A stretch of DNA of 64,000 nucleotides, from contig CAZNWB010000001.1 in assembly GCA_964576535.1 (NCBI GenBank), positions 66,082 to 130,081 on the forward strand. Reading direction: 5' to 3'. The stretch comes from an uncultured bacterium. Lineage in GTDB: Bacteria > Methylomirabilota > Methylomirabilia > Methylomirabilales > 2-02-FULL-66-22. Position numbers and translations under genes: made by a program. Numbering within the stretch: position 1 is the first letter of the stretch; each line of letters begins with the position of its first letter. Under the pieces are notes generated by a model. That model saw only the letters and a program-made list of their open reading frames with translations, had not been told where the DNA came from and did not search any database. Of this stretch, positions 2,502-42,000 are shown in pieces.

Positions 2502-4031
2502 GTGAGGTCGTATCGCCGCGCGACACTGCTCTGGTTGCTCGCCCTGACTGCCTTCCACCTCTGGTTTATCGCCAGCGGCCGCTGGCCCCTCTCCGGGGAC
2601 GAGGCCCACTACTGGGAGTGGTCCCGCCACCTGGACTGGAGCTACTACAGCAAGGGCCCCATGGTGGCCTACCTGATCGCGGCCAGCACGCGTCTCGGGG
2701 GCCACACGGAGTTCTGGGTCCGGCTGCCCGCCGTCCTGCTGGGAGTCGGCGTGGCGGTGGTCGCCTTCTTCCTGGCCCGCCGGATCTTCCAGAGCGATCG
2801 CGCCGGATTCCTCAGCGTCGTCTTCCTGAGCCTGATGCCCCTGTACCTTGCCGGCTCCTTCCTGATGACCATCGATCCGCCCTTCGTATTCTTCTGGGGG
2901 TTGGCCAGCCTCCTGCTCTGCCGCATCCCCCGCCGCCGGGGCGAGGCGGCGTGGTACGGCGCCGGCATTGTCTTTGGGCTCGGGTTGCTGAGCAAGTACA
3001 CGATGTTCATGCTCCCGGTCTGCGTGGCGATGTGGTTGCTGGTCTCTCCGAAGCTTCGCCCATGGCTCCGCCGGCGCGAGCCGTACGAGGCCGCCTTCCT
3101 CGGGCTGCTCGTCTTCAGCCCCGTCATCGTCTGGAACGTCCGGCATGGGTGGCTGTCGGGTCGCCACGTCTTGGTCCAGGCGGGCGCTGGGGGGGGCCGC
3201 TCGCTCGGGGCGTCGCTCCTCGGCGGCCCGGAGTTTCTCGCCTCGCAGCTCGGCGTGGTCTCGCCCTTCCTGTTCGTCCTGATGGGTCTGGCCGTGCTCT
3301 GGGCCTGGCGGGAGGGCATCCGTCAGGGGCGCGAGGACCTCTTGCTCCTGGCGTGCCTCTCGGCTCCCGTGTACATCTTTTTCCAGGTCTGGAGCTTCGC
3401 GACGAAGGTGCAGGCCAACTGGGCGGCTCACGCCTACTTCACCGCGGCCGTGGCGGCCGCCGGATGGAGCGAGACCTGGCCGGTGTGGGGGCCGCGCCGC
3501 CAGGGGACCAGGCGCTTGTACGGCCTGCTGCTTGCCTCTATAATCCTGCCCGTCGTGTCCCTTCCGTTGGCGTTCTTCCCGGAGGTCCTGGAGGTCTTCG
3601 GGGCCCGGGTCCCTGCGGCCGTAGACCTGGTGAGCAAGCGATTGCGCGGGTGGCCCGAGCTGGGGCGGGAAGTGGGAGAGGTGCTGCGTGGCTCGCCGAC
3701 TCCCCCGTTCCTGGTGAGCGACCGCTACCAGATCGCCAGCGAGCTTGCCTTCTACGTGGAGGGGCATCCGCGGGTGTTCAACGCCAACCTGGACCGCCGC
3801 ATGAACCAGTACGACCTGTGGGGAGGATGGGAGGCGCTGAAGGGGCGGGACGGCCTGTTCGTCACCTTCGGGGCCGGGGATCCGCCCGGGGAACTCCGGG
3901 ACGCTTTCCGCCGGGTGGAGCGGGTGAAGGTGGTGCCCATCGTGTACCGCGGCCAACGGCTCCGGGATTTCTCCATCTACTGGGGACGGGACTTCCGGGG
4001 CTTCCCCGCCCACCCCTTCACCGGATACTGA
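2502..4031 (+). CDS. Polytopic glycosyltransferase, GT39/GT83 (ArnT/PMT-like) family
   Basis: 509 aa with a GTG start. N-terminus has ..SGDEAHYWEWSRHLDWSYYSKGPMVAYL.. and many TM segments, typical of ArnT-like lipid-linked sugar transferases. Confidence 0.8.
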   Translation: MRSYRRATLLWLLALTAFHLWFIASGRWPLSGDEAHYWEWSRHLDWSYYSKGPMVAYLIAASTRLGGHTEFWVRLPAVLLGVGVAVVAFFLARRIFQSDRAGFLSVVFLSLMPLYLAGSFLMTIDPPFVFFWGLASLLLCRIPRRRGEAAWYGAGIVFGLGLLSKYTMFMLPVCVAMWLLVSPKLRPWLRRREPYEAAFLGLLVFSPVIVWNVRHGWLSGRHVLVQAGAGGGRSLGASLLGGPEFLASQLGVVSPFLFVLMGLAVLWAWREGIRQGREDLLLLACLSAPVYIFFQVWSFATKVQANWAAHAYFTAAVAAAGWSETWPVWGPRRQGTRRLYGLLLASIILPVVSLPLAFFPEVLEVFGARVPAAVDLVSKRLRGWPELGREVGEVLRGSPTPPFLVSDRYQIASELAFYVEGHPRVFNANLDRRMNQYDLWGGWEALKGRDGLFVTFGAGDPPGELRDAFRRVERVKVVPIVYRGQRLRDFSIYWGRDFRGFPAHPFTGY

Positions 4032-4117
4032 ACGCTGTTCGGTGGTTCGACCGTTCGGCGGTTCGGTTGTTCATCTGGCCTTCGGGAACTACCGAACCCC
4101 CGAACCACCGAACAGCC
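4031..4117. repeat. GTTCGG-family octamer hairpin
   Basis: GCTGTTCGGTGGTTCG at 4034 pairs with CGAACCACCGAACAGC at 4101. The arms are GTTCGNNN tandem units. It starts at the stop codon of the GT39 gene. Confidence 0.8.
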
Positions 4118-4157
4118 GGACGCCTGGGGTCGCAGCGATCCGTGTAGCATTGCTGAC

Positions 4158-5150
4158 GTGCCACAGCAGGGAGACACTGTGACCACCGACGTCCAACCGA
4201 CCGTCTCGATTATAGTCCCCGTCTTCAACGAAGAGGAGAACGTCCCGCTCCTGGCCGAGGAGATCCGCCGAGCCCTGGACCCCCAGGGGATCCCCTACGA
4301 GGTTGTGGCAGTGGACGACGGGTCCACGGACGGCACCTGGGAGCGGCTGGAAACTGTGCGCGCCCAGGATCCCCGCTGGGTCCTGGTCGGGCTGCGGCGG
4401 AATTTCGGCCAGACCGCGGCCATGTCCGCCGGCTTCGATCACGCCCGGGGCGAAGTGATCGTCACGCTGGATGGGGATCTGCAGAACGATCCGGCCGACA
4501 TCCCGCGTCTTCTGGAGGTGGCCAAGGACCACGACGTGGTTAGCGGATGGCGGAAGAACCGGCAGGACCCCTTCCTGAGCCGCCGCCTCCCCTCCATGCT
4601 GGCCAACTGGCTCATCTCCCGGGTCACCGGCATCCGCCTGCACGACTACGGCTGTACCTTGAAGGCGTACCGGCGGGAGGTCGTGGAGCATCTGCACCTC
4701 TACGGCGAGATGCACCGCTTTATTCCTGCCGTTGCCAGCTGGATGGGGATCAGCCTGGCCGAGGTGGAGACGCACCACCGGCCGCGCCGCTTCGGCCGAT
4801 CCAAGTACGGCATCATGCGGACCGTCCGGGTCGTCTTGGACCTGATCACGGTGAAGTTCCTTCTGAGCTTCGCCACCAAGCCGATCCAGGTCTTCGGTCT
4901 GCTCGGCGCCTGTATGGCCGCCGTGGGCCTGGTGATCGGTGGCTACCTCACCGTCCTCAAGCTCGGCTTCGGCGCGCAGATTGGCGGCCGGCCGCTCCTC
5001 TTCCTGGCGATCCTGCTCATCCTGGTCGGGGTGCAGCTCGTCGTGATGGGGCTCCTGGGTGAGATGCTCGTCCGGGTTTATCACGAGTCCCAGCGGAAGG
5101 CCATCTACATGGTCAGGCGCGTGCTGGGGCACCCCGGTCGGGAGGGGTGA
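4158..5150 (+). CDS. GT2 polyprenol-phosphate glycosyltransferase (ArnC/DPM1/GtrB-like)
   Basis: VSIIVPVFNEEENV..VVAVDDGSTDGT..TLDGDLQNDPADIP plus two C-terminal TM helices. Confidence 0.88.
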   Translation: MPQQGDTVTTDVQPTVSIIVPVFNEEENVPLLAEEIRRALDPQGIPYEVVAVDDGSTDGTWERLETVRAQDPRWVLVGLRRNFGQTAAMSAGFDHARGEVIVTLDGDLQNDPADIPRLLEVAKDHDVVSGWRKNRQDPFLSRRLPSMLANWLISRVTGIRLHDYGCTLKAYRREVVEHLHLYGEMHRFIPAVASWMGISLAEVETHHRPRRFGRSKYGIMRTVRVVLDLITVKFLLSFATKPIQVFGLLGACMAAVGLVIGGYLTVLKLGFGAQIGGRPLLFLAILLILVGVQLVVMGLLGEMLVRVYHESQRKAIYMVRRVLGHPGREG

Positions 5151-6130
5151 TGGGCCAGCAGGGGCTCCCCCGGCGGACGGGCCGCCTCCTGGTCCTGGGA
5201 AAGCTGCTGATCAGCAGCCTCCTCCTGGCGTTCCTGTTCCTGCGGGTGGATCGGACGGTCTTCGTCCGCACCCTCCAGGCCCTGCCCCTCAGGGTCTTCC
5301 TCGGGTGCGTGGGCCTGTACTTCCTGGGCACCGTCATCAGCACCGTCCGCTGGCAACGCCTGCTGCTAGCCGAGGGGATCCGGCTTCCCCTCTGGCGCCT
5401 GTCGCTCGTCTATTTCGAGGGGGCCTTCTTCAACCTGTTCCTGCCGACGCTGATCGGGGGGGACATCGTCCGCGGCTATTCCATCTACAAGATCACCCGA
5501 GGGCACGACGCGTCCATCGCCTCGATCCTGGTGGATCGCCTCTCCGGCTTTGCGGCCCTGATCATCATCGCACTGGTGGCGCTGGGGCTGGCCTATGGGC
5601 AGGTCCGCGACCCCCAGGTTGCCGCCATGATCCTGGGCGTGGCCGCCGCCTTCGTGGGGATGATTGCCGTCCTGCTGAACGAACGGGTGAAGGCATGGGC
5701 CTTGGGCCTCTTGCGGGGAATGGGCTTGGCGCGGTTCCAGGTCAAACTGCAGGGCATGGTGGAGGCGCTTCACCGCTACCGGGGACACCACCGGGCGCTG
5801 GGGCAGGCCCTCGTCCTCTCCGCGCTGCTGCAGGGTCTGATCATCGTGACCTACTACCTGATCGGTGCCGGACTGAATCTGGGGGTCCCGCTGGCGTACT
5901 TCTTCCTGTACGTTCCCCTGATCACGTTCGTGGCGATGCTTCCGGTCTCGGTCGCCGGCCTCGGCGTGCGTGAGGGGGGCGCGGTCTACTTCTTCGCCAA
6001 GGTGGGCGTGGACGCGGCGGCAGCCCTCGGCATGTCGCTGGCGTGGTTCTCCCTGTCGCTGATCGTGAGCAGCCTGGGTGGCCTCGCCTTTCTCGTGAAC
6101 ACCCACGCCGCCATGCGGGTTCGGGACTGA
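5147..6130 (+). CDS. Flippase-like / lysylphosphatidylglycerol-synthase-TM-region family membrane protein
   Basis: Polytopic, with ..RWQRLL..LFLPTLIGGDIVRGY.. typical of the UPF0104 family. The start overlaps the preceding stop (GTGATG). Confidence 0.75.
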   Translation: MMGQQGLPRRTGRLLVLGKLLISSLLLAFLFLRVDRTVFVRTLQALPLRVFLGCVGLYFLGTVISTVRWQRLLLAEGIRLPLWRLSLVYFEGAFFNLFLPTLIGGDIVRGYSIYKITRGHDASIASILVDRLSGFAALIIIALVALGLAYGQVRDPQVAAMILGVAAAFVGMIAVLLNERVKAWALGLLRGMGLARFQVKLQGMVEALHRYRGHHRALGQALVLSALLQGLIIVTYYLIGAGLNLGVPLAYFFLYVPLITFVAMLPVSVAGLGVREGGAVYFFAKVGVDAAAALGMSLAWFSLSLIVSSLGGLAFLVNTHAAMRVRD

Positions 6131-6137
6131 GGGGGCC

Positions 6138-6725
6138 ATGGTAGACGTGTGGTCGGGGCTCCAGGCGCTGGATAGCTGGGGGCTTCTCGTGATCAATCGC
6201 GTCCTGCAGAACCCGGTCTTCGACGTTCTGATGCCGATCCTGAGCACGAAACGCTACGCACTGCTGCCGGCGGCCGCCGCCATCCTCATGCTGGGGGTGT
6301 GGGGCGGGCGACGGATGTGGATCCTCCTGGCTGTGGGCGTCGTGGCGGTGGGCCTGAGCGACCTGGGGACCAACCTGATCAAGGCCGCCGTTCACCGAAC
6401 GCGGCCGTGCCACGTGATCCCCGACGTTCACCTGCTCACCGGCTGCACCCGGTCCTTTGCCTTCCCTTCCAATCACGCCAGCAACATGTTCGCCCTCGCG
6501 ACGGTGGCCTGGCTCGGATTCCGTCGGTGGCGATGGGGACTCGGCGTCCTGGCCGCCGCGGTGGCATATTCCCGGGTCTACGTGGGCGCCCACTATCCCG
6601 CAGACGCGGTGGGCGGGGCCATCTGGGGTGGGGCCATCGGGTGGGCCTGCACCGCCATAGCCGCACGCGCGTGGCCCGACCGGCTCGGCGGCCGTTCGAA
6701 AGAGGCGCTTGGCGGACCTGCCTGA
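6138..6725 (+). CDS. PAP2-family lipid phosphatase
   Basis: Three acid-phosphatase motifs are present: KAAVHRTRP, PSNH and SRVYVGAHYPAD. Confidence 0.85.
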   Translation: MVDVWSGLQALDSWGLLVINRVLQNPVFDVLMPILSTKRYALLPAAAAILMLGVWGGRRMWILLAVGVVAVGLSDLGTNLIKAAVHRTRPCHVIPDVHLLTGCTRSFAFPSNHASNMFALATVAWLGFRRWRWGLGVLAAAVAYSRVYVGAHYPADAVGGAIWGGAIGWACTAIAARAWPDRLGGRSKEALGGPA

Positions 6726-6750
6726 GCGCGCCCCAGGGGAGCCCCCCGCA

Positions 6751-7533
6751 GTGATCCGTCTGCAAGAGATCAACGCCCGATCCCCCTCCGAGAAAGAGCA
6801 CGTGTATGTCTCCCTGGTGCCCCCGGCCTTCTGCGAACGGTACGGCCTCGACCCGGTCACCCTCACCGATCCCCAGGGAAAATCTCTTGCCCGCCTCGAG
6901 GCGCCCCCAGGTGAGGCGTCGGTTCGCCTGACCCTGCGGCATCGCGCCGATGCCGTGGATCCGGCCCTCTTTCTGCGCCTGGATGAGAGTCGGTATGGCA
7001 ACTTGCAGGTTACCTGGATCATCCTGAGCGAACCCGAGGGCCCACGGTTTGGCGTGGACCTGGATGATGAGGGAAACGTGACAGATCTGGGCGCTCGCTT
7101 CCGGAACCTGCGTGAGGAGGAGGCCGCGATGCGGGCAGGGCTGGCGCCCGGGCAGATCCGACCCGGCCTGCGGATGCTCCGGGCCGTCCTGGATCGCATC
7201 GAAGATTTCGCATCGCGCCTGGGAAAGCCCGCACTCGTCTTGGAGGCATTCTTCTACCACAACGCCCTCACCTACGAGCGCCACGGGTTTGGCTATCTCG
7301 CAGGCCAGGAGCGGATGGAGGCGATGCATAGAGAGTTCCTGCCCGGGGCCGCGCTGGCGGCCCGTCTCGACGGGCGGACGCCCTTCCGAGCGCCCGGCGC
7401 GGGGACGACCGTTCGTGGCCGAAGCTGGGCCATCCACGATGGCATCCTCCCCCGGCGATGGTGGCCCCCCATGATGTACCGCCCCATCGGGGTCCGATTT
7501 GACGTCTGCACCGCACCTGGTCTCCCGTACTGA
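6751..7533 (+). CDS. Hypothetical protein (no family recognised)
   Basis: Long ORF with coding-like composition, co-directional with and abutting the PAP2 gene. GTG at 6751 is preceded by AGGGGAG. An alternative TTG at 6709 would overlap the PAP2 gene. Confidence 0.55.
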   Translation: MIRLQEINARSPSEKEHVYVSLVPPAFCERYGLDPVTLTDPQGKSLARLEAPPGEASVRLTLRHRADAVDPALFLRLDESRYGNLQVTWIILSEPEGPRFGVDLDDEGNVTDLGARFRNLREEEAAMRAGLAPGQIRPGLRMLRAVLDRIEDFASRLGKPALVLEAFFYHNALTYERHGFGYLAGQERMEAMHREFLPGAALAARLDGRTPFRAPGAGTTVRGRSWAIHDGILPRRWWPPMMYRPIGVRFDVCTAPGLPY

Positions 7534-7593
7534 AGCCTCCGGACTCCCCTGCCCTTGACAACCCAACCACTCCGGCACAAGTTAGGTTGCAGA

Positions 7594-7672
7594 GCGATCG
7601 GGCCTTCGGATTGAAGACGGAATCGCTCCCGAGACTTCAATCCGCGATCGGCAATCACCAATCATCAATCTC
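7594..7672. repeat. Imperfect hairpin (CGGATTGAAG/CTTCAATCCG) followed by CAATCAC CAATCAT CAATCTC heptamers
   Basis: Read directly, just upstream of the usp start. Confidence 0.5.
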
Positions 7673-7691
7673 GTTGCGAGGAGGTGGCGTC

Positions 7692-8174
7692 ATGTACAAA
7701 AAGATTCTCGTGCCCCTGGACGGATCGGAACTGGCGGAGAAGGTCCTCCCCCACGTGACAGCCCTGGCCAAGGCCAGCGGGGCCGAGGTGACCCTGGCCA
7801 CCGTGGTCCAGTTCACCGTGGGAGCCGTAGGCGCCAAACTCGAGGCCATGCCGGAGGCCGTGGCGGAGCGGAAGGCGGCCCTCAGGGTCGAGGCCCTGAT
7901 CTACCTGGAGAAGGTTCAGCGGGATCTGAAGGGCAAGGGGGTCACCGCCCACTGTGCCGCCCTAGAAGGTGATGTGGCCAGCCAGATCATCGCTTTTGCG
8001 GAGCAGAAGGGTTTTGATCTGCTCGCCATGGCAACCCACGGGCGGACCGGCATTGACCGGTTCGTCATGGGGAGCATCGCGGAAAAGGTGGTCAGGGGCA
8101 CGGTGAAACCGGTCCTGCTGGTCCGTTCCCTGGTCGCCCACCAGGTGCCGTGGGCCGAGGCGCAGATCGCCTGA
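7692..8174 (+). CDS. Universal stress protein (UspA family)
   Basis: ATG at 7692 is preceded by GAGGAGG. MYKKILVPLDGSELAE.. and the C-terminal ..ATHGRTGIDRFVMGSIAEKVV motif. Confidence 0.9.
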   Translation: MYKKILVPLDGSELAEKVLPHVTALAKASGAEVTLATVVQFTVGAVGAKLEAMPEAVAERKAALRVEALIYLEKVQRDLKGKGVTAHCAALEGDVASQIIAFAEQKGFDLLAMATHGRTGIDRFVMGSIAEKVVRGTVKPVLLVRSLVAHQVPWAEAQIA

Positions 8175-8215
8175 CCCCCGAAGCATCCCTGGGTGACACA
8201 TCCCTTCGAGGCTAA

Positions 8216-8250
8216 CCATCACGCCCGCGCGAAATGCGCGGGCGTGATGG
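8216..8250 (+). terminator. Perfect 15-bp hairpin downstream of usp
   Basis: CCATCACGCCCGCGC-GAAAT-GCGCGGGCGTGATGG. There is no clear T-tract, so its function as a terminator is inferred. Confidence 0.5.
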
Positions 8251-14850: not shown

Positions 14851-14860
14851 TCGGGCTCTC

Positions 14861-14996
14861 AAAGGCGTTCGAGTGTTCGGTCGTTCGGGCGTTCGGCTGT
14901 TCCTGGAACCACCGAACTACCGGGACCCACGGCACCGCGGTCCAGCGCCTCGCGGACCGCGACGGCGTGGGTGCCCCGAACCACCGAACGCTTTTC
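14861..14996. repeat. GTTCGG-family element with nested GC-rich core hairpin (variant apex)
   Basis: Termini are AAAGGCGTTCG.. and ..CGAACGCTTTTC, with GTTCGNNN units and a core at 14920-14981. It fills the lpxL-like/waaF gap. Confidence 0.85.
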
Positions 14997-15023: not shown

Positions 15024-16001
15024 CTAGCGGGGGCCGAAGGGTGCCTCCACGTCCTGCGACGTTGGCGCCTCCTGCTCCGTCTCGAGTCTCGGATCCAGCG
15101 GCAGGTGCGTCTTCCACCGCCGGTGGACCCAGAACCACTGGTCCGGCCGCTCCCGGATGAACGCCTCGATCGCCGCGGTGAACCGAGCCGTGTTCACCAC
15201 CAGGTCCGCCCGGAGGTCCCCGCTCCGGTGGATGGGCACCTCTGGGGCGATCTGGACCCGGTACTGGCCGCGGGCTTCTCGCATGATGGCGATGGGCACC
15301 ACGGCGGCGCCGGACCGGATGGCGATGAGGGCCGGCCCGGAGGCGGTCGAGGCGGGCCGGCCGAAAAAGGGAACCACCACGCCTTCCTTTTCGCTGATGT
15401 GCTGGTCGATCAGGATGCCGACGGTTTCCCCGCGCCTGAGCACCTGGAGGATCGCCTGGATTGCGTCCCGCTTCCGGATCACCCGGTTCCCGCCACGCTC
15501 CCGAAGGGCCGTGAGCAGATCGTCGAGTCGAGGATTGTCCAGGGGTCGGGCCACCATGTGGGTCGGTCCCAAGTACAGGGAGGCGAACAGCGGCAGGAGT
15601 TCCCAGGGGCCGAAGTGCGCCATGATCACGAGCACGCCCTTGCCCCGTTGCCGTGCCGAGAGCAGCCGTTCGAAACCGTCCAGCTGGATGGCGCCCGCCT
15701 CTCGCCCGCTGAGGAGTCTGTCCGAACGGGCCACGTCCACGACCGTCCGCCCCAGGTTCTCGAACACACGGCGCGCCAGCGTCTCAACCTCCGAGGGCGA
15801 GAAACGGTCCGGGAACGCTCGCGAGAGATTCTCGACGGCGACGGTCCGGTGCCGTCGGTCCAGCCCGAAGGCCAAACGCCCGGCCCCCTCCCCCAGGGCG
15901 TAGACGACCGACTCGGGAAGCCAGGCCAAGACCCGCGCAAGACCCGCGACCAGCGCCCATTCGGCCAGGGCCACCGGGCTCCATCGGGATCGCTTAGCCA
16001 C
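15024..16001 (-). CDS. Lipid A biosynthesis late acyltransferase (LpxL/HtrB family)
   Basis: GTG at 16001 overlaps the lpxK stop. ..IMAHFGPWELLP.. (HX4E-type), ..DQHISEKEGVVVPFFGRPA.. and ..WFWVHRRWK. Confidence 0.85.
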   Translation of the reverse strand: MAKRSRWSPVALAEWALVAGLARVLAWLPESVVYALGEGAGRLAFGLDRRHRTVAVENLSRAFPDRFSPSEVETLARRVFENLGRTVVDVARSDRLLSGREAGAIQLDGFERLLSARQRGKGVLVIMAHFGPWELLPLFASLYLGPTHMVARPLDNPRLDDLLTALRERGGNRVIRKRDAIQAILQVLRRGETVGILIDQHISEKEGVVVPFFGRPASTASGPALIAIRSGAAVVPIAIMREARGQYRVQIAPEVPIHRSGDLRADLVVNTARFTAAIEAFIRERPDQWFWVHRRWKTHLPLDPRLETEQEAPTSQDVEAPFGPR

Positions 16002-17121
16002 GCGCCCCCCCAACGGACCGGGTGAGAAGCGCGTCGAGAGCTTCCGCACCCTCGATGATCTCCAGGTCCACGCAGAGCACCCGGAGCGGTCGGTCAGGCC
16101 GTCCACCCCCGTCCCAGGCGGGCATGCGAAGCGCGTCCTTCTCCGTCGTGATGACCAGGTCGGCCCGGGCCTCGTCCGCACCCCGCCCCACCCGCGCGAG
16201 GTCGGCCGGGCCGTACGGATGGTGGTCCGGGAATGTCAGCGTCCCGGCCACGACCGCCCCGAGGTCCGTGAGGGTACGGTGGAAGGCCTCGGGGTTGGCG
16301 ATACCGCTCACCGCCAGGACCCGCCGACCCCCCAGTGAGGCGAGTGGGTATTCCTCACCCTCAGGGAAGCGCATCAGACGCGCCGGCCGATGCCGCGCGA
16401 GAACCTGGAGCGCGCCCGGGACGATCTGCTCCAGGCAGCGCCGCAGACCGGGAAGATCCGACGCCTGGTCCGACCGGGTCAAAATAATCGCCTGGGCGCG
16501 ACAAAGCGCAGCCACGGGTTCCCGCAGGCGCCCCCGCGGCAAGAGCCGGCCCCCCCCGAAGGCATCGCTCGCGTCCACCATGACAAGATCCAGATCCCGA
16601 TGGAGTTGCCGGTGCTGAAAGCCATCGTCGAGCAGCAGGACGTCCAGCCGGAAGCGGCGCAGGACCTCCTGCCCCGCCTGGAACCGGCTTGCCCCCACCA
16701 CCACCGGAACGCCGGGGAGGCGCCGGGCGAGGAGCATCGCTTCGTCGCCCACGGCTTCCCAGCGGGAACGAACCTCCCGGTCATCGGCCGCCAGCGTCAC
16801 CCCCGACACGTGGCGTCCGTACCCACGGAGGAGGATCCCCGCGGCGTGCCCCCACCCGCGGAGCCGCTGGGCCAGGGCGATGGTGCAGGGCGTCTTGCCC
16901 GTTCCCCCCACCGTCAGGTTGCCGATGGAGACCACCGGGCACGGCAGGCGGCGGATTCGCCGCAGCCCCGAGGCAAAGGTCCAGTCTCGGACCTCCACCC
17001 CGACTCGGTATCCGGCCGTTGCCGCCGCCAGCACCGCCAGCCAGAGCCGCTGCGCCAGCGTCGGTGCCGGCGACCGCATCGAGCCCAGGGAGTAGGCCTT
17101 GACCGCGGTCCCCAGACTCAC
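15994..17121 (-). CDS. lpxK: Tetraacyldisaccharide 4'-kinase
   Basis: ..VVSIGNLTVGGTGKTP.. P-loop and the expected length. GTGA overlap with the waaA stop. Confidence 0.92.
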   Translation of the reverse strand: MSLGTAVKAYSLGSMRSPAPTLAQRLWLAVLAAATAGYRVGVEVRDWTFASGLRRIRRLPCPVVSIGNLTVGGTGKTPCTIALAQRLRGWGHAAGILLRGYGRHVSGVTLAADDREVRSRWEAVGDEAMLLARRLPGVPVVVGASRFQAGQEVLRRFRLDVLLLDDGFQHRQLHRDLDLVMVDASDAFGGGRLLPRGRLREPVAALCRAQAIILTRSDQASDLPGLRRCLEQIVPGALQVLARHRPARLMRFPEGEEYPLASLGGRRVLAVSGIANPEAFHRTLTDLGAVVAGTLTFPDHHPYGPADLARVGRGADEARADLVITTEKDALRMPAWDGGGRPDRPLRVLCVDLEIIEGAEALDALLTRSVGGARG

Positions 17122-18386: not shown

Positions 18387-18395
18387 GGGTCACTC

Positions 18396-18506
18396 AAAAG
18401 CGTTCGGTAGTTCGGTGGTTCGGTTGTTCCACGGTTCCGCGGCTCGCCAGTTCGACCGTTTCGGTACAACCGAACTACCGAACGCTCGAACTCCCAAACG
18501 TTTTTC
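18396..18506. repeat. GTTCGG-family octamer hairpin
   Basis: AGCGTTCGGTAGTTCGG at 18399 pairs perfectly with CCGAACTACCGAACGCT at 18470. The right end overlaps the last codons of the DUF374 gene. Confidence 0.8.
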
Positions 18507-19200: not shown

Positions 19201-20346
19201 TCAGGCCGCCGGAATCAGCGCCAAGACCTCACGGGCCGCCCGTTCCGCCGCTCCAGGGGTTCCCAGACGGCTGCCAACCTCGACCAGCTTGGCGCGCATC
19301 CACGCCTGGCGCTCGGGCGATCCCAGGATCTCCGAGGCCGTCGCCGCCAGATGCTCGGGGGTCGCCTGGAACTGGATCAGTTCCGGGACGATTTCCTCAC
19401 CCGCCACCAAATTGGGCAGGCCGATGAACCGGACCCGGACCAGGCAGCGCGCCAGCAGCCACGACAGCCAGCCCAGACGATATGTGATAATCATGGGAGT
19501 TCCCAGGATGGCCGCCTCCAGGGTCACCGTCCCCGAGACCGCCAGGAGGAGATCCGCCGCCCGCATCACCTCGGAAGTCCGTCCCTGCACCACCGTGACC
19601 GGCACGGGCGAGGACCGCACTGCCTCCCTCACCGATCCGTCATCCAGCGTCGGCGCGAGAGCCAGAACTCCCCGAAGGTCCGGCCGTCTGGCCGTGAGGC
19701 GCGCGGCCGTCTCCAACAGGAGAGGCAGGTGCCGCCGGATCTCCGCCTGCCGGCTCCCCGGGAGCAGGCCCAAGACCAGCGAGGCATCCGGCAGGCCCAG
19801 GGAGGCGCGGCACGCCTCGCGCGATGGCACCGCCGCGAGCACATCCAGAAGAGGATGGCCGACAAACGTCACGTCAACTCCCGCCTGCCGGTACAGGGGC
19901 TCCTCGAACGGGAACAGGACGAGCATCTTCCGCACCAGGCGCCGGATCGTGCGGATCCGCCCGCGCCGCCAGGCCCAGATCTGGGGGCTGATGAAGTAGC
20001 AGACCGGGATGCGCAGGTGATGGGCCGTGCGCGCCAGGAGGAGGTTGAAATCCGGAAAGTCAATGCAGATCAGCAGGGCTGGCCGGACAGCCCGGAGGCG
20101 CTTCCGCAAGAGGTGCAGGGCGGTCGAGAGCACCCGTCGCTTCTCCCACACCTCCGTGAGGCCCACGACGGCGGCCTGCCCCGCATCGGCGAGGAGGTGC
20201 ACCCCGGCCTCTCGCATGCGCGGGCCGCCCATGCCCTCCACAATCACGTGTGGCGCCAGTCGCCGGAGCGCCTCGACCAGCCGTCCCCCATGCAGATCCC
20301 CCGAGGCCTCGCCCGCCACGATCATGATCCGGGTCGCCGCGGGCAC
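19201..20346 (-). CDS. lpxB: Lipid-A-disaccharide synthase
   Basis: ..IMIVAGEASGDLHGGRLVEAL.. The start is uncertain (GTG 20346 or ATG 20325). The track start at 20412 lies inside a repeat. Confidence 0.88.
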   Translation of the reverse strand: MPAATRIMIVAGEASGDLHGGRLVEALRRLAPHVIVEGMGGPRMREAGVHLLADAGQAAVVGLTEVWEKRRVLSTALHLLRKRLRAVRPALLICIDFPDFNLLLARTAHHLRIPVCYFISPQIWAWRRGRIRTIRRLVRKMLVLFPFEEPLYRQAGVDVTFVGHPLLDVLAAVPSREACRASLGLPDASLVLGLLPGSRQAEIRRHLPLLLETAARLTARRPDLRGVLALAPTLDDGSVREAVRSSPVPVTVVQGRTSEVMRAADLLLAVSGTVTLEAAILGTPMIITYRLGWLSWLLARCLVRVRFIGLPNLVAGEEIVPELIQFQATPEHLAATASEILGSPERQAWMRAKLVEVGSRLGTPGAAERAAREVLALIPAA

Positions 20347-20355
20347 ACCGTGACC

Positions 20356-20469
20356 GGGTGGATTAGTGGACTGGTGAATCAGTGGATCCGTGTTCTGGCC
20401 CACCGTCCTCACGTCCCCCTACTCCACCAATTCACCGATCCACCCATGCACAAGCCCACCGATCCACTC
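20356..20469. repeat. Octamer-word inverted arrays (GGTGGATT AGTGGACT GGTGAATC AGTGGATC // ..ATTCACCG ATCCACCC .. ATCCACTC)
   Basis: Period-8 arrays of RGTGRAYY and their complement read directly. It lies between the oxidoreductase stop and the lpxB start. Confidence 0.7.
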
Positions 20470-21414: not shown

Positions 21415-21425
21415 GGCGTCTCATA

Positions 21426-21520
21426 AGAGCGTTCGACGGTTCGGTCGTTCGGTGGTTCGGTTGTACCGCAGCACTCAGGGAACCACCGAACTGCCGACCC
21501 ACCGAACAGCCGAACGCTCT
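21426..21520. repeat. GTTCGG-family octamer hairpin
   Basis: Perfect 10-nt termini AGAGCGTTCG / CGAACGCTCT. Units are CGGTTCGG TCGTTCGG TGGTTCGG. Confidence 0.85.
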
Positions 21521-21526
21521 TGGCGT

Positions 21527-31061: not shown

Positions 31062-31146
31062 CAATTTCGAATATCGAATGTCGAATGTCGAATGTCGAAC
31101 CGCCCATTCGATATTCATGATTCGACATTCGTCTGTTCATCATTCG
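31062..31146. repeat. Heptamer-word hairpin (AATTTCG AATATCG AATGTCG x3 // ATTCGAT ATTCATG ATTCGAC ATTCGTC)
   Basis: Read directly. The right arm reaches the lolC stop codon at 31140. Confidence 0.8.
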
Positions 31147-32473: not shown

Positions 32474-32597
32474 GCCAATGCAAAACGGACAACGGACAAC
32501 TGACAACCGGCCATCTGCCGAACTTGACCGGTTGTCGGTTGTCAGTTTGACACTTGAAATTACCCCCGCAAGGGACCGGTTGTCGGTTGTCAGTTCG
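32474..32597. repeat. GTTGTC-family element (one left arm, two right-arm copies)
   Basis: GCCAATGCAAAACGGACAACGGACAACTGACAACCGG, then CCGGTTGTCGGTTGTCAGTT at 32529 and again at 32576. Confidence 0.8.
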
Positions 32598-32601
32598 TCA
32601 T

Positions 32602-32630
32602 GTGAAAATGCGAGGGCTAGACGCCCTCGC
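32602..32630 (-). terminator. Intrinsic terminator of lysS with the stop codon in the loop
   Basis: Minus strand: GCGAGGGC-GTCTA-GCCCTCGC followed by ATTTTCAC. Confidence 0.6.
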
Positions 32631-34107: not shown

Positions 34108-34134
34108 TCGTCCTCCGGATGATCGGGAGGCCAG

Positions 34135-34253
34135 CTCTCAGCCATCAGCCACGGAAAAGGCGAGAGCGGGAAATTCGGAAGCTGAAACCGATTGCCCTCG
34201 TTGCCCGCCTGCAAGCTGAAAGCTGAAAGCTGACCGCTGATCGCTGAACGCTG
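34135..34253. repeat. GCTGA-family element in the lysS 5' leader
   Basis: CTCTCAGCCATCAGCC at 34135 and six tandem NNGCTGA heptamers at 34212-34253 are inverse-oriented partners. Confidence 0.75.
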
Positions 34254-34273
34254 AGATTGCGTAACGTGCCGCG

Positions 34274-34302: not shown

Positions 34303-34320
34303 GCCAACGCCCCAACCCAA

Positions 34321-34452
34321 CGTGTTCGGTGGTTCGAGAGTTCGGTGGGTGGGTCGTTCGGCGCATCCCGATGAACCACCGGGACCCACGGCACCGCGGT
34401 GGATTCCCACCGCCGTGGCGTGGGTGCCCCGAACACTCGAACGATCGAACGC
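34321..34452. repeat. GTTCGG-family element with nested 56-nt core hairpin
   Basis: GTTCGGTGGTTCGAGAGTTCGG.. left, ..CGAACACTCGAACGATCGAACG right, core at 34379-34434. Confidence 0.85.
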
Positions 34453-34473
34453 CTCTGGCTGGCATTGGCCAGG

Positions 34474-34716
34474 TCAACCCTTGACCCTGAGCTGGGACTC
34501 GTTCTGGGCGATAAATTTCCTGATGTCGTCCGCCATGCCGAGGAGCTTCAGCCACTGCTCCTTGTAGAGGGTGACGGGAAACCGCCCCAGACCATAGACC
34601 GATACCGCGCCTTTCTCGCTCACCTTGATGCTCGTTGCCCGGGTCACCTTGGCCTTGAGCGCCTGGTTCTCGGCCCGCAGCCGCTCCAGCTCCGCCCGAA
34701 GATCGTCGTCCCCCAT
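34474..34716 (-). CDS. Small hypothetical protein (80 aa; N-terminal coiled-coil)
   Basis: ATG at 34716 is preceded by GGGGGGAGGTG. The composition is coding-like (..VSEKGAVSVYGLGRFPVTLYKEQWLKLL..). No family recognised. Confidence 0.6.
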   Translation of the reverse strand: MGDDDLRAELERLRAENQALKAKVTRATSIKVSEKGAVSVYGLGRFPVTLYKEQWLKLLGMADDIRKFIAQNESQLRVKG

Positions 34717-34780
34717 GGCTCACCTCCCCCCATGCTAACCCGATTCCGAGAATATTAGCCGCCAAGGCGCCAACCTCTGA

Positions 34781-34891
34781 ACTGGCAATCAGGCAATCCG
34801 GCAACCTGGCAATCGGGAGTTCCCAGTTGCCGGGTACCCTCCGAGTGCGCCTGGTTGCCAGATTGCCCAGTTGCCTGGTTGCCCCTGATTC
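34781..34891. repeat. Octamer-word inverted arrays (ACTGGCAA TCAGGCAA TCCGGCAA CCTGGCAA // ..GGTTGCC AGATTGCC CAGTTGCC TGGTTGCC)
   Basis: Read directly between the prfB stop and the small gene. Confidence 0.75.
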
Positions 34892-36180: not shown

Positions 36181-37760
36181 CACTGGGCACGAGCCCGCCA
36201 GAGGGCGAGTCCGTATGCAGCCAGGAACGCCAGGCAGGCCCACGCCAGGATGTCCCCGTATCGCGTGTACAGGGTTTGACGCTGTCGTAACCGGATCGTT
36301 CCCAAGAGGCTCGCCTCGGTGAAGATCCCGGTGTGAGCCAGGATTTCCCCGGTGGGGGCAATCACGGCCGTGACACCGGTGTTGGCTGCCCGCACGAGGT
36401 ACGTCCCATTCTCCACGGCCCGCATGGCGGCCATGGCCAGGTGCTGGTAGGGCGCGCCGCTTCGGCCGAACCAGGCATCGTTGGTGATGTTGACCAGGAA
36501 GGCCGCCCCGCGGTCCACGAACTCCCGCACCTCACCCGGGAAGATGACCTCGTAACAGATCATCACGCTGAATTGCACCCCGTCCAGGGAAAAGACGGTG
36601 GCGGCCCGTCCCCGACCGAAGTCCCCGATCCCCACCACGAGCTTATCCAGGAAAAAGAAGATCGTCCGGAGCGGCACGTACTCGCCGAAGGGAACCAGGT
36701 GGCGCTTGTCGTAGCGGCCGCCGATCTCCCCGTCAGGGCGCAGGAGGAAGGCCGTATTGTACAGCAAGGCATCCTCCCCCAGGTCGGGGCTGCCGGTGAG
36801 CGTCGGGATGCCGACCTCTGCGATGAAGCGCCGCACGCGTGCGCCAAGCTCGGGCTCGCGTCGCAACAAGAACGGCAGGGCCGTCTCTGGCCAGACGATC
36901 AGCGCCGGCTTCTCCTCCGCCACCCGGCGGGCCAGCCGCTCGTAGATGTCCAGGGTAGCTGCCTGGTAGCTCCGGTCCCACTTCAGCGACTGGTCAATAT
37001 TCCCCTGGAGGAGCCCCACGCGAACGGTGGGACCGCCTGTGGGATCCCGCCAGATGGCCCGGGCATAGGCCAGCGTGCTCCCCAGGGCGAGAATCGTCAG
37101 CCCCACCGGAAGGAGCGCACCCCGCCGCCGGCTCCCCCCCACCCGCCCGCGCCAGGTTCGGGCCAGAAGGTCTGCGATCGTCCCATTCACCAGGACCACG
37201 AGAGCGGAGATCCCGTACACCCCGACCGCCGATGCCAGCAGGCGGATCGTGGGCTGCCGGTACTGGCTGTACCCGAGGAGCGCCCACGGGAATCCCGAGA
37301 ACAGATGGCTCCGCAGGAACTCCAGGGCTGTCCACAGCCCCGCAGCCACCAACGGGACACTCCCGCCTGGCAGCCGCAATCGGTGCTGCCCGGCCGACAG
37401 GAGCCAGGTGAAGGCCGCCGTATAGGCCCCCAGGACCGCGCAAAGGAGCAGCAGCGCCACCAGGCTCAGCCCAAGCGGCATCCGGCCATAGGTGGTCATC
37501 GTATTGACGACCCACCAGATGGTCCCCAGGAAGAAGCACAGGCCGGACGTGTATCCCAGCCATGCCGCCTGGCGCGGCACGACCCCCTCGAGCGCGAGGA
37601 ACAGGGGCACCAGGGCGACGAAGCTGACCAGGCCAATGTCCCAGGGTGGAAAGGCCGCCGTGCAGAGGACACCGCTCCCGGCCGCGAGACCGAAGCGCAC
37701 CGCTCGCGATATCTGCGGCGCACCCGCCCACGGTCTCGCGATCACACCCACCCGAGCCAT
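36180..37760 (-). CDS. lnt: Apolipoprotein N-acyltransferase
   Basis: N-terminal polytopic domain plus a C-terminal CN-hydrolase domain (..LIVWPETALP.., ..ICYEVIFP..). Confidence 0.9.
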   Translation of the reverse strand: MARVGVIARPWAGAPQISRAVRFGLAAGSGVLCTAAFPPWDIGLVSFVALVPLFLALEGVVPRQAAWLGYTSGLCFFLGTIWWVVNTMTTYGRMPLGLSLVALLLLCAVLGAYTAAFTWLLSAGQHRLRLPGGSVPLVAAGLWTALEFLRSHLFSGFPWALLGYSQYRQPTIRLLASAVGVYGISALVVLVNGTIADLLARTWRGRVGGSRRRGALLPVGLTILALGSTLAYARAIWRDPTGGPTVRVGLLQGNIDQSLKWDRSYQAATLDIYERLARRVAEEKPALIVWPETALPFLLRREPELGARVRRFIAEVGIPTLTGSPDLGEDALLYNTAFLLRPDGEIGGRYDKRHLVPFGEYVPLRTIFFFLDKLVVGIGDFGRGRAATVFSLDGVQFSVMICYEVIFPGEVREFVDRGAAFLVNITNDAWFGRSGAPYQHLAMAAMRAVENGTYLVRAANTGVTAVIAPTGEILAHTGIFTEASLLGTIRLRQRQTLYTRYGDILAWACLAFLAAYGLALWRARAQ

Positions 37761-38536
37761 ACCAGGACGTACAGGACCGGACCCGCAAACATCAGGCTGT
37801 CCAGGCGATCCAGCACCCCACCATGCCCGGGGATGAGGCTCCCGCTATCCTTGGCAGCGGCACCGCGCTTCACCACCGACTCGCAGAGATCCCCGATGAT
37901 CCCTGCGGCTCCAAGCATGAGTCCGACCCATGCCGCCTTGTCCCAGGAAAGCCTCGGCCAGACCTGGCTGCTGCCCGCCAGCGCCACCACGACGGTGGCC
38001 GCCAGGCCGCCCAGCGCGCCCTCGACCGTCTTCTTGGGGCTGATGCGGGGCGCGAGCGGCCGACGCCCGAACCGGCTCCCGAGATAGAACGCCCCGGTAT
38101 CTCCCGCCCATATCGCGAAGGCCAGGTAGTAAATGAACTGCCTCCCTTCGGGGAGTGCTCGCAAGAGGCTGGCGTAGCTCAGTAACCCCCCCACATAGGT
38201 CACGCCCAGGACAATCCACGCCCCCTGCAGCAGGCCGACCCGGAACCCCGCCGGAACCAGCGTGGCGCGGACCAAGGCCACGCCCCCCACCGCTGCCCCC
38301 ACCCCTGCCAGCCCACCTCCCCAGGTGACCGCCGTGTGCCACGCCAATGCGCCCAGGATCGTCACGAGGGAGAGCCCGGGATCGGTCCCCTCCGGACACA
38401 GCCGGGAAAATTCCCAGGCCGCCAGGGCAATGACCAGGCCCACCAGCAGGGTGAAGTGTAAGGCGGAGCCGAAGTGGACCAGGAGGAGAAACGGGGGGAT
38501 GAGCAACAGGGAGCTGAGGATCCGTTGACGATGCAT
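37742..38536 (-). CDS. cdsA: Phosphatidate cytidylyltransferase
   Basis: Polytopic, with the C-terminal signature ..SVVKRGAAAKDSGSLIPGHGGVLDRLDSL. Confidence 0.9.
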   Translation of the reverse strand: MHRQRILSSLLLIPPFLLLVHFGSALHFTLLVGLVIALAAWEFSRLCPEGTDPGLSLVTILGALAWHTAVTWGGGLAGVGAAVGGVALVRATLVPAGFRVGLLQGAWIVLGVTYVGGLLSYASLLRALPEGRQFIYYLAFAIWAGDTGAFYLGSRFGRRPLAPRISPKKTVEGALGGLAATVVVALAGSSQVWPRLSWDKAAWVGLMLGAAGIIGDLCESVVKRGAAAKDSGSLIPGHGGVLDRLDSLMFAGPVLYVLVWLGWV

Positions 38537-38579
38537 GACCTGGCCGTCCGCTGTCCCACACCGGGCGCGCAGAGCGGAC

Positions 38580-39134
38580 TCAGAACTCCATGATCTCTTT
38601 TTCCTTCTTCTCCACGAGCTCGTCCAGCCCCTTGATCATGCGGTTGGTCAACTCCTGGGTCTGGTCCATGCCCTTGCGCACGCCGTCCTCGGAGAGCTGC
38701 TTGGTCTTCTCCAGCTTCTTGAGCGCCTCGTTGGCGTCGCGGCGAATGTTGCGGATGACCACCCGCCCCTCCTCCGCCATCTTGCGCACGACCTTCACCA
38801 GCTCCTTCCTGCGCTCTTCGGTCAGGGAAGGGACCGCCAGCCGGATGACCTTGCCGTCGCTGGTCGGGGTGATCCCCAGGTCGGATTTCAGGATCGCCTT
38901 CTCGATGACCGGAATCAGCGAGGCATCCCAGGGCTGGATGGTGATCAGGCGCCGCTCCGGCGTCGCCAGGTTGGCCACCGCCTTCAGGGGAGTGGGCGTG
39001 CCGTGGTAGTCCACGACGATGCCATCCAATAACGCCACCGAGGCCCGGCCCGTCCGGACGCTGTTGAAGTCCTTCAGGGTCGCCTCTGTGGCCCGCTTCA
39101 TGTCCTGCTCGGCCTTCCGGAGGACGTCCTGCAT
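38580..39134 (-). CDS. frr: Ribosome recycling factor
   Basis: Full-length RRF similarity (..LDGIVVDYHGTPTPL.., ..IRNIRRDANE..). Confidence 0.96.
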   Translation of the reverse strand: MQDVLRKAEQDMKRATEATLKDFNSVRTGRASVALLDGIVVDYHGTPTPLKAVANLATPERRLITIQPWDASLIPVIEKAILKSDLGITPTSDGKVIRLAVPSLTEERRKELVKVVRKMAEEGRVVIRNIRRDANEALKKLEKTKQLSEDGVRKGMDQTQELTNRMIKGLDELVEKKEKEIMEF

Positions 39135-39152
39135 GGGTGCTCTCCCCCCTCC

Positions 39153-40795
<1,643 letters not shown>

Positions 40796-40804
40796 GAGCG
40801 TTCC

Positions 40805-41689
40805 TCACTGAACACCGGCCGGGGTCGACTGTGCGGATGGGGGTTCCGGCCGCGGGGCTTCAGTCCCCGGGGACCCCGCCTCGCGGGGGGACCCACTTGT
40901 GGGTGCCCCCGCGGCTGCCGCTGCCCCTGGGGTCCCCTCCGCGCCTGATTTGGCGGCGGTACCGGCGGTCATCGCCTCCTCAAGTCCGGCCACGCCAGCC
41001 TTGGCGGCCTCCCCGCGCCCCTCGATGATGGTATCCGCCAGCCGGGACGTGAGCAGCCGGACGGCCCGGATGGCGTCGTCGTTGCCTGGGATGGGAAAAT
41101 CGATCTCGTCGGGATCGCAGTTGGTATCCACCACCGCCACCACCGGGATGCCCAGGCGGCGCGCCTCAGCCACCGCGATGCGCTCCTTACTCGGGTCGAT
41201 GACGAACACCGCTCCCGGGAGGTTCTCCATGGCCTTGATCCCCATGAGCGCGTTGTTCAGTTTCTCCATCTCCCGCTCGAGCCGCAGGATTTCCTTCTTG
41301 GAGAAGGCCTCGAACTTTCCGGTGGCCTGCATGTCCTCGAGTTGTTTGAGACGCGAGATGCTCTTGGTGATCGTCTGGAAGTTCGTCAGGGTCCCGCCCA
41401 GCCACCGCCGGTTGACGAAGAACATGCCGGCCCGCGCGGCCTCATCCTGGATCGTATCCACCGCCTGCTTCTTGGTGCCCACAAACAGCACCTTTCCGCC
41501 CCGCGCCGCCATGGCGCGCAGGAAGGCCTCCGCCTCCTGAAACTTCTTCAGGGTCTTTTGCAGGTCAATGATGTAGATCCCGTTTCGCTCCCCAAACAGA
41601 TACTTCTTCATCTTCGGGTTCCACCGCTTTGTCTGGTGCCCGAAGTGAACGCCGGCTTCCAAGAGTTCTTTGATCGTCACCGTGGCCAT
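40805..41689 (-). CDS. rpsB: 30S ribosomal protein S2 (with about 60-aa Ala/Gly/Pro-rich C-terminal tail)
   Basis: [27 protein letters not shown].., conserved throughout the core. Confidence 0.96.
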
Positions 41690-41824
41690 CGCATCCCTCC
41701 CAGTCCGGTTGATCCGCCGCGCGCCTCCCCTCCCACCGGATCACCCCGCCAAAGGCGGGGCGACACCCCCGATGGAATCCGCGCGCGTGTGAATTTGGCC
41801 CGCGATCGCCGCGGACCGATTCGT

Positions 41825-41853
41825 CTTATATCACACAGCTGCAGGGGCAGCAA
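41825..41853 (-). promoter_or_regulatory. Candidate promoter TTGCTG-N17-TATAAG for rpsB
   Basis: Minus strand: CAGCAA at 41848-41853 and CTTATA at 41825-41830. A structured leader of about 130 nt follows (CCCCGCC-TTTG-GCGGGG). Confidence 0.55.
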
Positions 41854-41861
41854 GTGTCGTC

Positions 41862-42000
41862 GAAAAGCGTTCGACTGTTCGGCAGTTCGGGGCACCCACG
41901 CCACAGCGGTGGGTATCCACCGCGGTGCCGTGGGTCCCGGTTGTTCCCCCGAACCCAAAACGACCGAACCACCGAACGGTCGAACCACCGAACGCTTTTC
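41862..42000. repeat. GTTCGG-family element with nested 56-nt core hairpin (inverted orientation)
   Basis: Perfect 12-nt termini GAAAAGCGTTCG / CGAACGCTTTTC. The core at 41885-41940 is the reverse complement of 34379-34434, with 2 differences. Confidence 0.85.

Follow-up and report, generated by a model that had tools for sequence, protein, structure and literature searches.

Short-period arrays of tandem repeats between genes, among them the short tandemly repeated repetitive (STRR) sequences of cyanobacteria, the GGGAATC arrays of Xanthomonas and the TAACTGA repeats, have been known for decades and have no accepted origin or function. In cyanobacteria, the small dispersed repeats that Elhai et al. 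are said to have described in 2008 are reportedly hairpins of 21–27 nucleotides (nt) without coding capacity, set into tandem heptamer repeats in specific contexts and found at some orthologous sites but not at others. Here we describe a family of arrays built on the word GTTCG in a stretch of 64,000 nt from an uncultured bacterium of the phylum Methylomirabilota (NC10/Rokubacteria; contig CAZNWB010000001.1, positions 66,082–130,081; the whole stretch is called the window below). The reading that we tentatively favor is that the inverted GTTCG arrays are resident palindromes resembling repetitive extragenic palindromic (REP) sequences and REPINs, that a separate non-autonomous hairpin nested in some of them is placed by an enzyme acting on single-stranded DNA, and that the effect on the host is that of hairpins between cistrons or at 3′ ends.

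Heterogeneous heptamer arrays with a conserved core and variable positions, commonly of about four units and of unknown function, occur in Xanthomonas (GGGAATC) and Nostoc (GGGGAYT) (Rehm et al. 2015, PMC4692102). The Xanthomonas arrays are 89–93% intergenic, at a mean distance of 28 nt from the upstream open reading frame (ORF), with 7–8% between divergent genes; 70–75 convergent inverted pairs of heptamer arrays are potential stem-loops, and the arrays recur between the same gene pairs in related species with variable length and sequence (PMC4692102). TAACTGA heptamer direct repeats are found in Beggiatoaceae, Cyanobacteria and Bacteroidetes and have been proposed to be protein-binding sites (MacGregor 2015, PMC4679880). 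Further systems to be compared are the REP sequences with their bacterial interspersed mosaic elements (BIMEs) and the REPIN–RAYT system (Bertels & Rainey 2011, PMC3116915; PMC3337134; bioRxiv 10.1101/2021.07.10.451892), and the IS200/IS605 family with its non-autonomous derivatives (PMC5027513, PMC3201880), which insert with their left end 3′ of a tetra- or pentanucleotide that is specific to the element (PMC5027513). Searches of the literature for repeats in Rokubacteria or Methylomirabilis were without result, and no description of the GTTCG family was found in Rfam or in the literature searched.

The window has a G+C content of about 67% and encodes LpxI, LpxB, LpxK, KdtA, heptosyltransferases, ArgJ, ribosomal protein S2 and LysRS; the closest protein matches are in metagenome-assembled genomes of Candidatus Methylomirabilota/NC10 (LpxB 92%, ArgJ 96% identity). 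An earlier inspection of the letters alone (the sequence-only reading) had proposed six copies of a GTTCG family. All six are present: GTTCGNNNGTTCG occurs 26 times in the window, compared with 0.22 occurrences expected from shuffles, and all 26 fall within the six loci (Table 1). A profile hidden Markov model trained on 83 arms, all from contigs other than the window, was applied with a reporting cut of E ≤ 10; because it finds only the 12 arms of these six elements and no other match, the window contains exactly six copies, none of them solo or decayed. Further copies are plentiful in related contigs, with at least 80 distinct ones.

Each arm is a phased array of three to six units GTTCG-R-B-N with a period of 8 nt, in which the sixth position holds a purine and the seventh any base but A, capped by YAARRGC; the element ends read YAARRGC-GTTCG...CGAAC-GCYYTTR. 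Complementarity of the ends is perfect over 12 nt at 41862/41989 and over 10–11 nt at 21425/21511, as had been noted, and all six copies fold as long hairpins (−46 to −84 kcal/mol, z −4.0 to −7.5 relative to dinucleotide shuffles). The earlier concern that the shared ends might be a by-product of the low-complexity word is answered by a profile of 83 non-redundant elements from Methylomirabilota-type contigs. In both arms, Y-A-A-R-R-G-C stands immediately before the first core, with A at 44–71% in positions −6 to −3, G at 65–74% in position −2 and C at 77–83% in position −1, in DNA of about 67% G+C. Since this sequence is kept before the first core in both arms, the conserved termini are more than a by-product of the GTTCG word.

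What is conserved inside the elements is the word. In 13 independent orthologous pairs, with cores defined on one member per pair, per-site differences amounted to 1.0% in the core and 14.3% in the 3-nt spacers, with 6.3% in loops and termini and 8.6% in the flanks, which are mostly coding (core versus spacer, Fisher's exact test, p = 5 × 10−10; p = 1.6 × 10−7 after doubling the core count as an ascertainment correction for the one-member definition). In-register facing spacers pair at 1.79 of 3 positions, which is no better than after shuffling (1.68 ± 0.065), and in the 49 elements lying between co-directional genes, the number of G-U pairs is 122 on the sense strand versus 116 on the antisense strand, with equal energies (p = 0.26). 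Because the spacers do not pair above shuffles and the two strands fold equally, the hairpin potential derives from inverted arrays with one common consensus unit, and the constraint falls on the word, equally for the two strands. Such a pattern is not what selection acting on RNA structure alone would lead one to expect. Since RNA pairing alone would not keep the core while ignoring the spacers, we infer that GTTCG is recognized at the level of DNA, whichever the strand, by some sequence-specific factor.

A second result, the strict dependence of a nested hairpin on the same word, points in the same direction of a factor that reads it. Copies 2, 5 and 6 contain GGGCACCCACGCC...GGTGCCGTGGGTCCC, an imperfect hairpin of 49 nt, or of 55 nt with an altered apical stem. 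Metagenome contigs were scanned with a pattern consisting of the two hairpin halves alone, without GTTCG, and the 93 DNA stretches from the scan together with the window, L019 and L117 gave 100 instances (L numbers denote contig stretches other than the window, mostly from metagenomes). An exact GTTCG stands immediately 5′ in 96 of the 100, the other four having GATCG (twice), GGTCG and CGTTC; a G follows directly 3′ in all 100, after which 96% go on with GTTC in the same phase. With respect to the word, none of the 100 is reversed. The 60 nt on the 5′ side contain one exact GTTCG in 24 instances, two in 55 and three in 18, and in 17 instances the right-arm core (CGAAC) is missing within 150 nt. 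Within the hairpin, the free apical stem covaries, with four pairs changed on both sides (a value reached by 0 of 500 shuffles), and the irregularities, namely a bulged C4 and the mismatches C12.C39 and G16.G35, are all retained.

The nested hairpin comes and goes as a unit. At the argJ/rpsB junction, the window reads GTTCG[50 nt]GTT versus GTTCG GTT in L219 (ArgJ 96% identical), a precise difference without target duplication; at the LpxI/Gfo junction, the L117 element carries the hairpin and those of the window, L119 and L120 lack it, again with exact in-phase boundaries. The boundary is ambiguous by one G. The hairpin is strictly dependent on the GTTCG word and is gained and lost independently of the outer element; it looks independently mobile, and nowhere else in the elements are signs of mobility as clear.

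A second in-phase module, GTTT-CCGCC-NNN-GGCGG-ATTCG, in which 16 nt correspond to two units, is present in at least 12 independent elements. Inside GTTCG arms it was seen in L012 (5737), L124 (11983 and 12039), L221 (3091), L127, L133, L136, L153, L162, L182, L183, L186 and L198. A related observation is a CCGCC-TGAG-GGCGG hairpin within a GACAAC arm at argC/argJ of L219, which the window orthologue lacks.

The outer elements, in turn, hold their positions. We compared the window with syntenic loci of relatives centered on lpxB (LpxB identity 69–92%) and on argJ (ArgJ identity 83–96%). Four of the six copies (3, 4, 5 and 6) recur at unchanged gene junctions in relatives with 77–96% identity in the flanking proteins, and positionally orthologous copies share loops and spacers by descent; a look for empty sites, which the sequence-only reading had proposed, finds the whole element missing only in relatives that are about 69–74% identical. 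At the LpxI/Gfo junction (copy 4), L117, L119 and L120 have a GTTCG element with the same terminus, and the loop CCCTGAGTGC..GGTACAAC is common to the window, L117 and L119. The element of L119 is half replaced by CGAAT words, L124 has a CGAAT-word palindrome, L123 a non-periodic spacer, and in L125 the genes overlap and the site is empty. At DUF374/KdtA (copy 3), GTTCG elements are present in L117, L119, L120 and L122 and a degenerate one in L124; the spacers AGC/AGT, GTA and GTT are common to the window, L117 and L119, and the right-arm spacers AAC, CAC and TAC to the window and L119. At argJ/rpsB (copy 6), the element is present in L219 and L221 and decayed in L220, and copy 5 has an orthologue in L154 that includes the downstream promoter and bears its nested hairpin at the corresponding spot.

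Because the number of units and the spacers differ between the window and L219 at 96% ArgJ identity while the adjoining rpsB leader is nearly identical, the arrays evolve fast, by insertion and deletion of whole units and by spacer substitution, yet stay in place. Different word families also substitute for one another at a single junction: argC/argJ has a GTTCG-type element with the terminus GAAGAGC in L221 and a GACAAC palindrome in the window and L219. The recurrence of this non-repeat terminus at an unrelated junction suggests that the elements are discrete and copyable rather than arrays born in place, and since the L221 junction differs and word families replace one another, copying and pasting over long timescales is likely. 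For recent copying between non-orthologous elements the identities of 0.87–0.92 were considered and set aside, as the shared cores account for most of this likeness; a rare hairpin variant common to the pair L126/L132 does not decide the question.

On sequence grounds, the window copies are therefore best described as old, vertically inherited residents and not as recent insertions of MITEs (miniature inverted-repeat transposable elements). The family had been called MITE/REP-like, and the two halves of that label fare differently. The elements are REP-like in being extragenic imperfect palindromes with conserved ends, near stop codons and in many copies, whereas recent MITE-like transposition does not agree with the orthologous positions and with the lack of a visible target-site duplication at any of the six copies.

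With the core/spacer contrast and the fixed junctions at hand, the alternatives can be weighed. Each of them accounts for part of the data and fails on particular points. Neutral replication slippage, by which octamer or heptamer simple repeats would have grown in place, been inverted by chance and remained functionless, with no dedicated enzyme, agrees with a unit number that varies even between 96% identical relatives and with the many word families of the same architecture in one genome, and the over-representation of heptamers in bacteria has been attributed to polymerase slippage (PMC4692102). However, slippage would homogenize whole units, and here neighboring spacers differ while cores are kept; moreover, conserved non-repeat termini recur at unrelated junctions, and the inverted arrangement and the proximity to stop codons are strongly non-random. 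We consider this explanation unlikely.

The position of the elements relative to genes bears on a role in RNA. In a non-redundant set of 84 elements, co-directional genes flank 49, convergent genes 13 and divergent genes a single one, the other 21 being at contig edges; in a set of 82 elements, 4 lie between divergent genes. The first core is usually 4–15 nt past the upstream stop codon, and the subset bearing the nested hairpin has the same positional preferences as the full set. An effect on the host as intercistronic or 3′ hairpins is the most likely one, a role predicted because the elements sit just past stop codons and fold as stably as given above.

It is another matter to suppose that the elements are structured cis-acting RNAs (a terminator, attenuator or processing site) constrained solely by the folding of the sense transcript. 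The very stable hairpins, the placement just past stop codons within operons, the A-rich and T-rich ends, like those of bidirectional terminators, and the covariation in the nested hairpin are what such RNAs would show. But G-U pairs and energies are alike on sense and antisense strands, facing spacers do not covary, the nested hairpin points either way with respect to the flanking genes (24 versus 17), no element fits the standard terminator pattern, and Rfam gave no match at the gathering threshold and nothing relevant even at E ≤ 1. This possibility is doubtful, about on a par with slippage.

The picture is more complex for the nested hairpin and its relation to the outer arrays. According to the reading that we favor, the outer elements would be resident REP/REPIN-like intergenic palindromes, and the nested hairpin would be a non-autonomous element placed by a target-specific single-strand enzyme of the HUH/Y1 type, IS200/IS605- or RAYT-like. 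The factor that recognizes GTTCG on DNA would most simply be this hairpin-placing enzyme; the GTTCG arrays would be landing pads for the hairpin and perhaps substrates of the same enzyme, and as predicted intercistronic or 3′ hairpins the elements may hold up 3′-exonucleases or act as terminators that are weak and work in both directions.

Several observations weigh against this combination. The nested element is a single long hairpin rather than separate left-end and right-end hairpins, and no replication-strand bias is seen in it by the sign of the local GC skew, a noisy proxy (28 versus 29 loci). No Y1/HUH gene is present in the 64-kb window. Genes encoding Y1_Tnp fused to a DnaA C-terminal domain do occur in L120 (18215–19198, minus strand), L121, L165 (6865–7896, minus strand) and L147, but they are unlinked to GTTCG elements and flanked by their own, different inverted repeats of 23–30 bp, in L165 also by GGCAAAGGGGAC arrays; when the L120 protein was compared by tblastn with the window and all loci, the window gave no match and the only matches were in L165 and L147, about 3.6 kb from an element, with unrelated repeats alongside. 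As to a terminator role, a scan with a consensus pattern (a G+C-rich stem of 5–20 pairs and a short loop, followed by a stretch with 5 or more T in 8) flagged none of the elements, and of 83 elements, 19 have TTTT and 33 have TTT within 10 nt past the last core. Finally, gene conversion among copies, instead of site-by-site selection, could explain the conservation of the cores.

A more far-reaching version, which we think improbable to the same degree as slippage, is that phased-word palindromes are a distinct and widespread class of resident elements in bacteria, in which the cores are maintained owing to a sequence-specific recombinase of single strands that cuts and rejoins between cores, and the arrays are obligate landing pads for the 49/55-nt hairpin and the 16-nt CCGCC-NNN-GGCGG module. 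If this were true, the recombinase would yield gains and losses of whole units and homogenization of cores, there would be three nested layers including the host genome, and the same logic would account for the heptamer arrays of Xanthomonas and cyanobacteria.

Double-strand DNA site arrays, (GTTCGGTG)n, for a host protein unrelated to a transposase (nucleoid-associated, roadblock or partition-like) that recognizes GTTCGR at 8-bp spacing would explain why cores are conserved in fixed phase, why spacers are unconstrained and why both strands behave alike. We nevertheless hold this to be rather improbable: about eight words of the same architecture per genome would each require a protein of its own, different words can fill the same junction, and an 8-bp period places successive sites on different faces of the helix. 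Least probable of all, and in our view very unlikely, are classical MITEs, that is, recent non-autonomous copies of a DDE-type insertion sequence, recognized by their terminal inverted repeats and with GTTCG units as subterminal transposase-binding sites, for which speak the conserved and inverted ends of the 83 elements (YAARRGC-GTTCG), the short motifs repeated in the arms (a likeness to transposon ends with multiple transposase-binding sites), the same family and terminus at the non-homologous junction in L221 and the replacement of word families at one junction, but against which stand the orthology of the window copies across 77–96% identical relatives, the lack of direct repeats at the six copies (which are old, so that erosion is possible), the lack of a longer element bounded by GTTCG arms (20 half-elements, in which 0.6–7 kb of downstream sequence contain no distal right arm) and of a transposase in the window, as had been stated from the sequence, a between-copy divergence of spacers as large as composition permits, and cores that dead copies would not hold about 7–14 times better than spacers.

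Table 1. Positions in the window of the GTTCG palindromes, of the nested hairpins and of other short-period arrays (dG in kcal/mol).
Feature	Position	Strand	Remarks
GTTCG copy 1	4031–4121	none	4 left-arm units from 4037; right arm 4086–4121; dG −51.1, z −6.2
GTTCG copy 2	14860–14996	none	Y-shaped fold; dG −79.2, z −5.0
Nested hairpin in copy 2	14921–14976	−	55-nt variant, apical GGTCC...GGACC; directly after minus-strand GTTCG core
GTTCG copy 3	18395–18505	none	DUF374/KdtA junction; dG −46.2, z −4.0
GTTCG copy 4	21425–21521	none	fills junction of LpxI and Gfo-type oxidoreductase; dG −57.5, z −7.2
GTTCG copy 5	34319–34456	none	downstream of small ORF (~34468–34717, minus strand); dG −78.8, z −6.2
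Nested hairpin in copy 5	34380–34429	−	49 nt
GTTCG copy 6	41862–42000	none	4 nt past argJ stop (42005), upstream of rpsB leader; dG −83.9, z −7.5
Nested hairpin in copy 6	41890–41939	+	49 nt plus a G: GTTCG-GGGCACCC...GGGTCCCG-GTT
Other array	1812–1891		
Other array	2450–2487		
Other array	20356–20445		
Other array	31062–31131		
Other array	32474–32607		
Other array	34137–34254		
Other array	34784–34883		
Other array	43251–43340		
Other array	47505–47647		
Other array	48458–48527		
Other array	62765–62840		

The surroundings of the individual copies correct the sequence-only reading in several details. It had placed four of the six copies in the minus-strand lipid A/lipopolysaccharide gene string, which contains only three (14861, 18396 and 21426); the copy at 4031 has plus-strand glycosyltransferase genes on both sides, beginning at the stop codon of a PMT_2 glycosyltransferase gene (2502–4031) and standing upstream of a GT2 gene (4158–5150), and has no nested hairpin. 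Those four copies were said to lie exactly between cistrons, which does not apply to the copy at 18396, whose right end overlaps the called DUF374 ORF in its last ~10 codons. The outer element being palindromic, the statement that both orientations occur has a meaning only for the nested hairpin, from which alone orientation can be read. The size range of about 85–140 nt is explained in part by the same hairpin, which had been overlooked and which enlarges the three large copies (14861, 34321 and 41862).

Copy 2 is flanked by the stop of a lipid A acyltransferase gene (15024–16181, minus strand) and the start of a heptosyltransferase-HAD gene (13156–~14853, minus strand). The acyltransferase gene, which lies between lpxK and the heptosyltransferase-HAD gene and directly precedes copy 2, is found at that position in L123 and is missing from it in L117–L120 and L124. 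Just downstream of copy 5, between it and a TCAGC/GCTGA array, there is a perfect sigma-70 consensus promoter (34302–34274, minus strand; TTGACA, 17 nt, TATAAT), which serves lysS and is conserved in L154. Near copy 6, upstream of the S2 gene, positions 41708–41809 (minus strand) weakly match the Rfam family t44, which is the rpsB leader, with 26.6 bits and E 0.22, short of the gathering score; this leader is near-identical in L219 and well conserved in L220 and L221. Elsewhere, two direct 171-nt copies, 82% identical (51913–52083 and 52111–52281), lie within an ORF (51410–53074, minus strand) and are probably an internal protein repeat.

The window has about eight word families built alike, which the sequence-only reading had overlooked; GTTCG is the largest, and the others include GACAAC, GCTGA, GGCAAY, CGAAT, GAATGC and GTGGAT. 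Together they form about 27 arrays with a period of 7–8 nt (4.2 per 10 kb), mostly as intergenic inverted pairs. No short-period array was found in the 21 kb of L125, whose LpxB is 69% identical. The words of the other arrays in Table 1 are GAATGCG, CGAATTT, GTGGATNN, CGAATGT, GACAACN, TCAGC/GCTGA and GGCAAYC, and the GACAACN arrays have termini of their own, GCAAAAC...GTTTTGC. The core ATCCAC of the GTGGATNN array resembles a DnaA box. At 20325–20445, the inverted arm of the GTGGATNN palindrome falls within the N-terminal ~29 codons both of the longest LpxB ORF and of LpxB as called in relatives (TDPLIHQSTNPP...). The protein probably begins in fact at the conserved M(I/M)VAGEASGD, in which case the called N-terminal extension would be an artefact that the repeat has brought into the annotation.

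When contigs were scanned with a four-unit pattern, most of the matches listed were chance occurrences or plain tandem repeats in unrelated taxa. GTTCG-word palindromes with other spacers and termini, such as AGG-GTTCG...CGAAC-CCTTTT, were seen in other phyla, namely in Haliscomenobacter (L015, L064, L081, L093), Vicinamibacterales (L018, L072, L098), Fimbriimonadales (L092) and Chitinophagaceae (L113); because the search word was GTTCG, they are uninformative on a common origin. Likenesses to the tRNA T-arm (GGTTCGAATCC), to Chi/KOPS-like words and to DNA-uptake sequences were considered and dropped, as these do not form phased tandem arrays.

Taken together, the core/spacer contrast and the dependence of the nested hairpin on the word in 100 of 100 instances are new, testable handles on the old question of such arrays: the GTTCG family offers a measurable gap in constraint, conserved ends and an orthologous series in a poorly studied phylum, and the strict placement of the hairpin 3′ of GTTCG implies that some cellular factor reads the word. 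In practical terms, the arrays cause mis-annotation, as with the probably false LpxB extension, and within essential operons (lipid A synthesis, argJ-rpsB) they may set the ratios of expression between cistrons.

Compared with known systems, the GTTCG family shares with the arrays of Xanthomonas and Nostoc the tandem units in which a core is conserved and other positions vary, the intergenic position near the upstream ORF, the convergent pairs, the rarity between divergent genes and the occurrence, in changing length, at the same junctions in relatives. It differs in a period of 8 rather than 7 nt, in a unit, GTTCGRBN, without G-runs and hence no G-quadruplex, in its conserved non-repeat termini, in being made almost wholly of inverted pairs, in its dedicated nested hairpin and in its phylum, Methylomirabilota. 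Like the TAACTGA repeats, which span distant phyla, it consists of abundant intergenic short-period repeats of one word; however, those are direct repeats just upstream of starts, and the GTTCG elements are inverted pairs just downstream of stops.

With REP sequences and REPINs, the family has in common imperfect palindromes that are short, extragenic and placed either at 3′ ends or between cistrons, hairpin-forming inverted doublets, vertical inheritance, long persistence at fixed positions and several families per genome. In contrast to them, the arms are phased GTTCGRBN arrays with YAARRGC ends, without a single REP stem or a 5′ tetranucleotide of the GTAG type, and unlike in the REPIN–RAYT system no flanking RAYT gene was found, none being present in the window and the Y1 genes of related contigs being flanked by other repeats. 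The nested hairpin resembles IS200/IS605 elements in its position 3′ of a 4–5-nt target, its single orientation, the lack of a duplication and its irregular, imperfect fold; it differs in being one hairpin of 49/55 nt instead of two, with no tnpA nearby and no detected strand bias of the kind that IS200/IS605 members show. It parallels the cyanobacterial small dispersed repeats, as they are reported, in being a very small hairpin set into short-period tandem arrays and found at some orthologous sites but not at others. Its sequences and phylum are different, and its 49/55 nt, with the 16-nt module, stand against 21–27 nt; for the nested hairpin, the strict dependence on one 5-nt word was seen in 100 of 100 instances when four near-variants are allowed.

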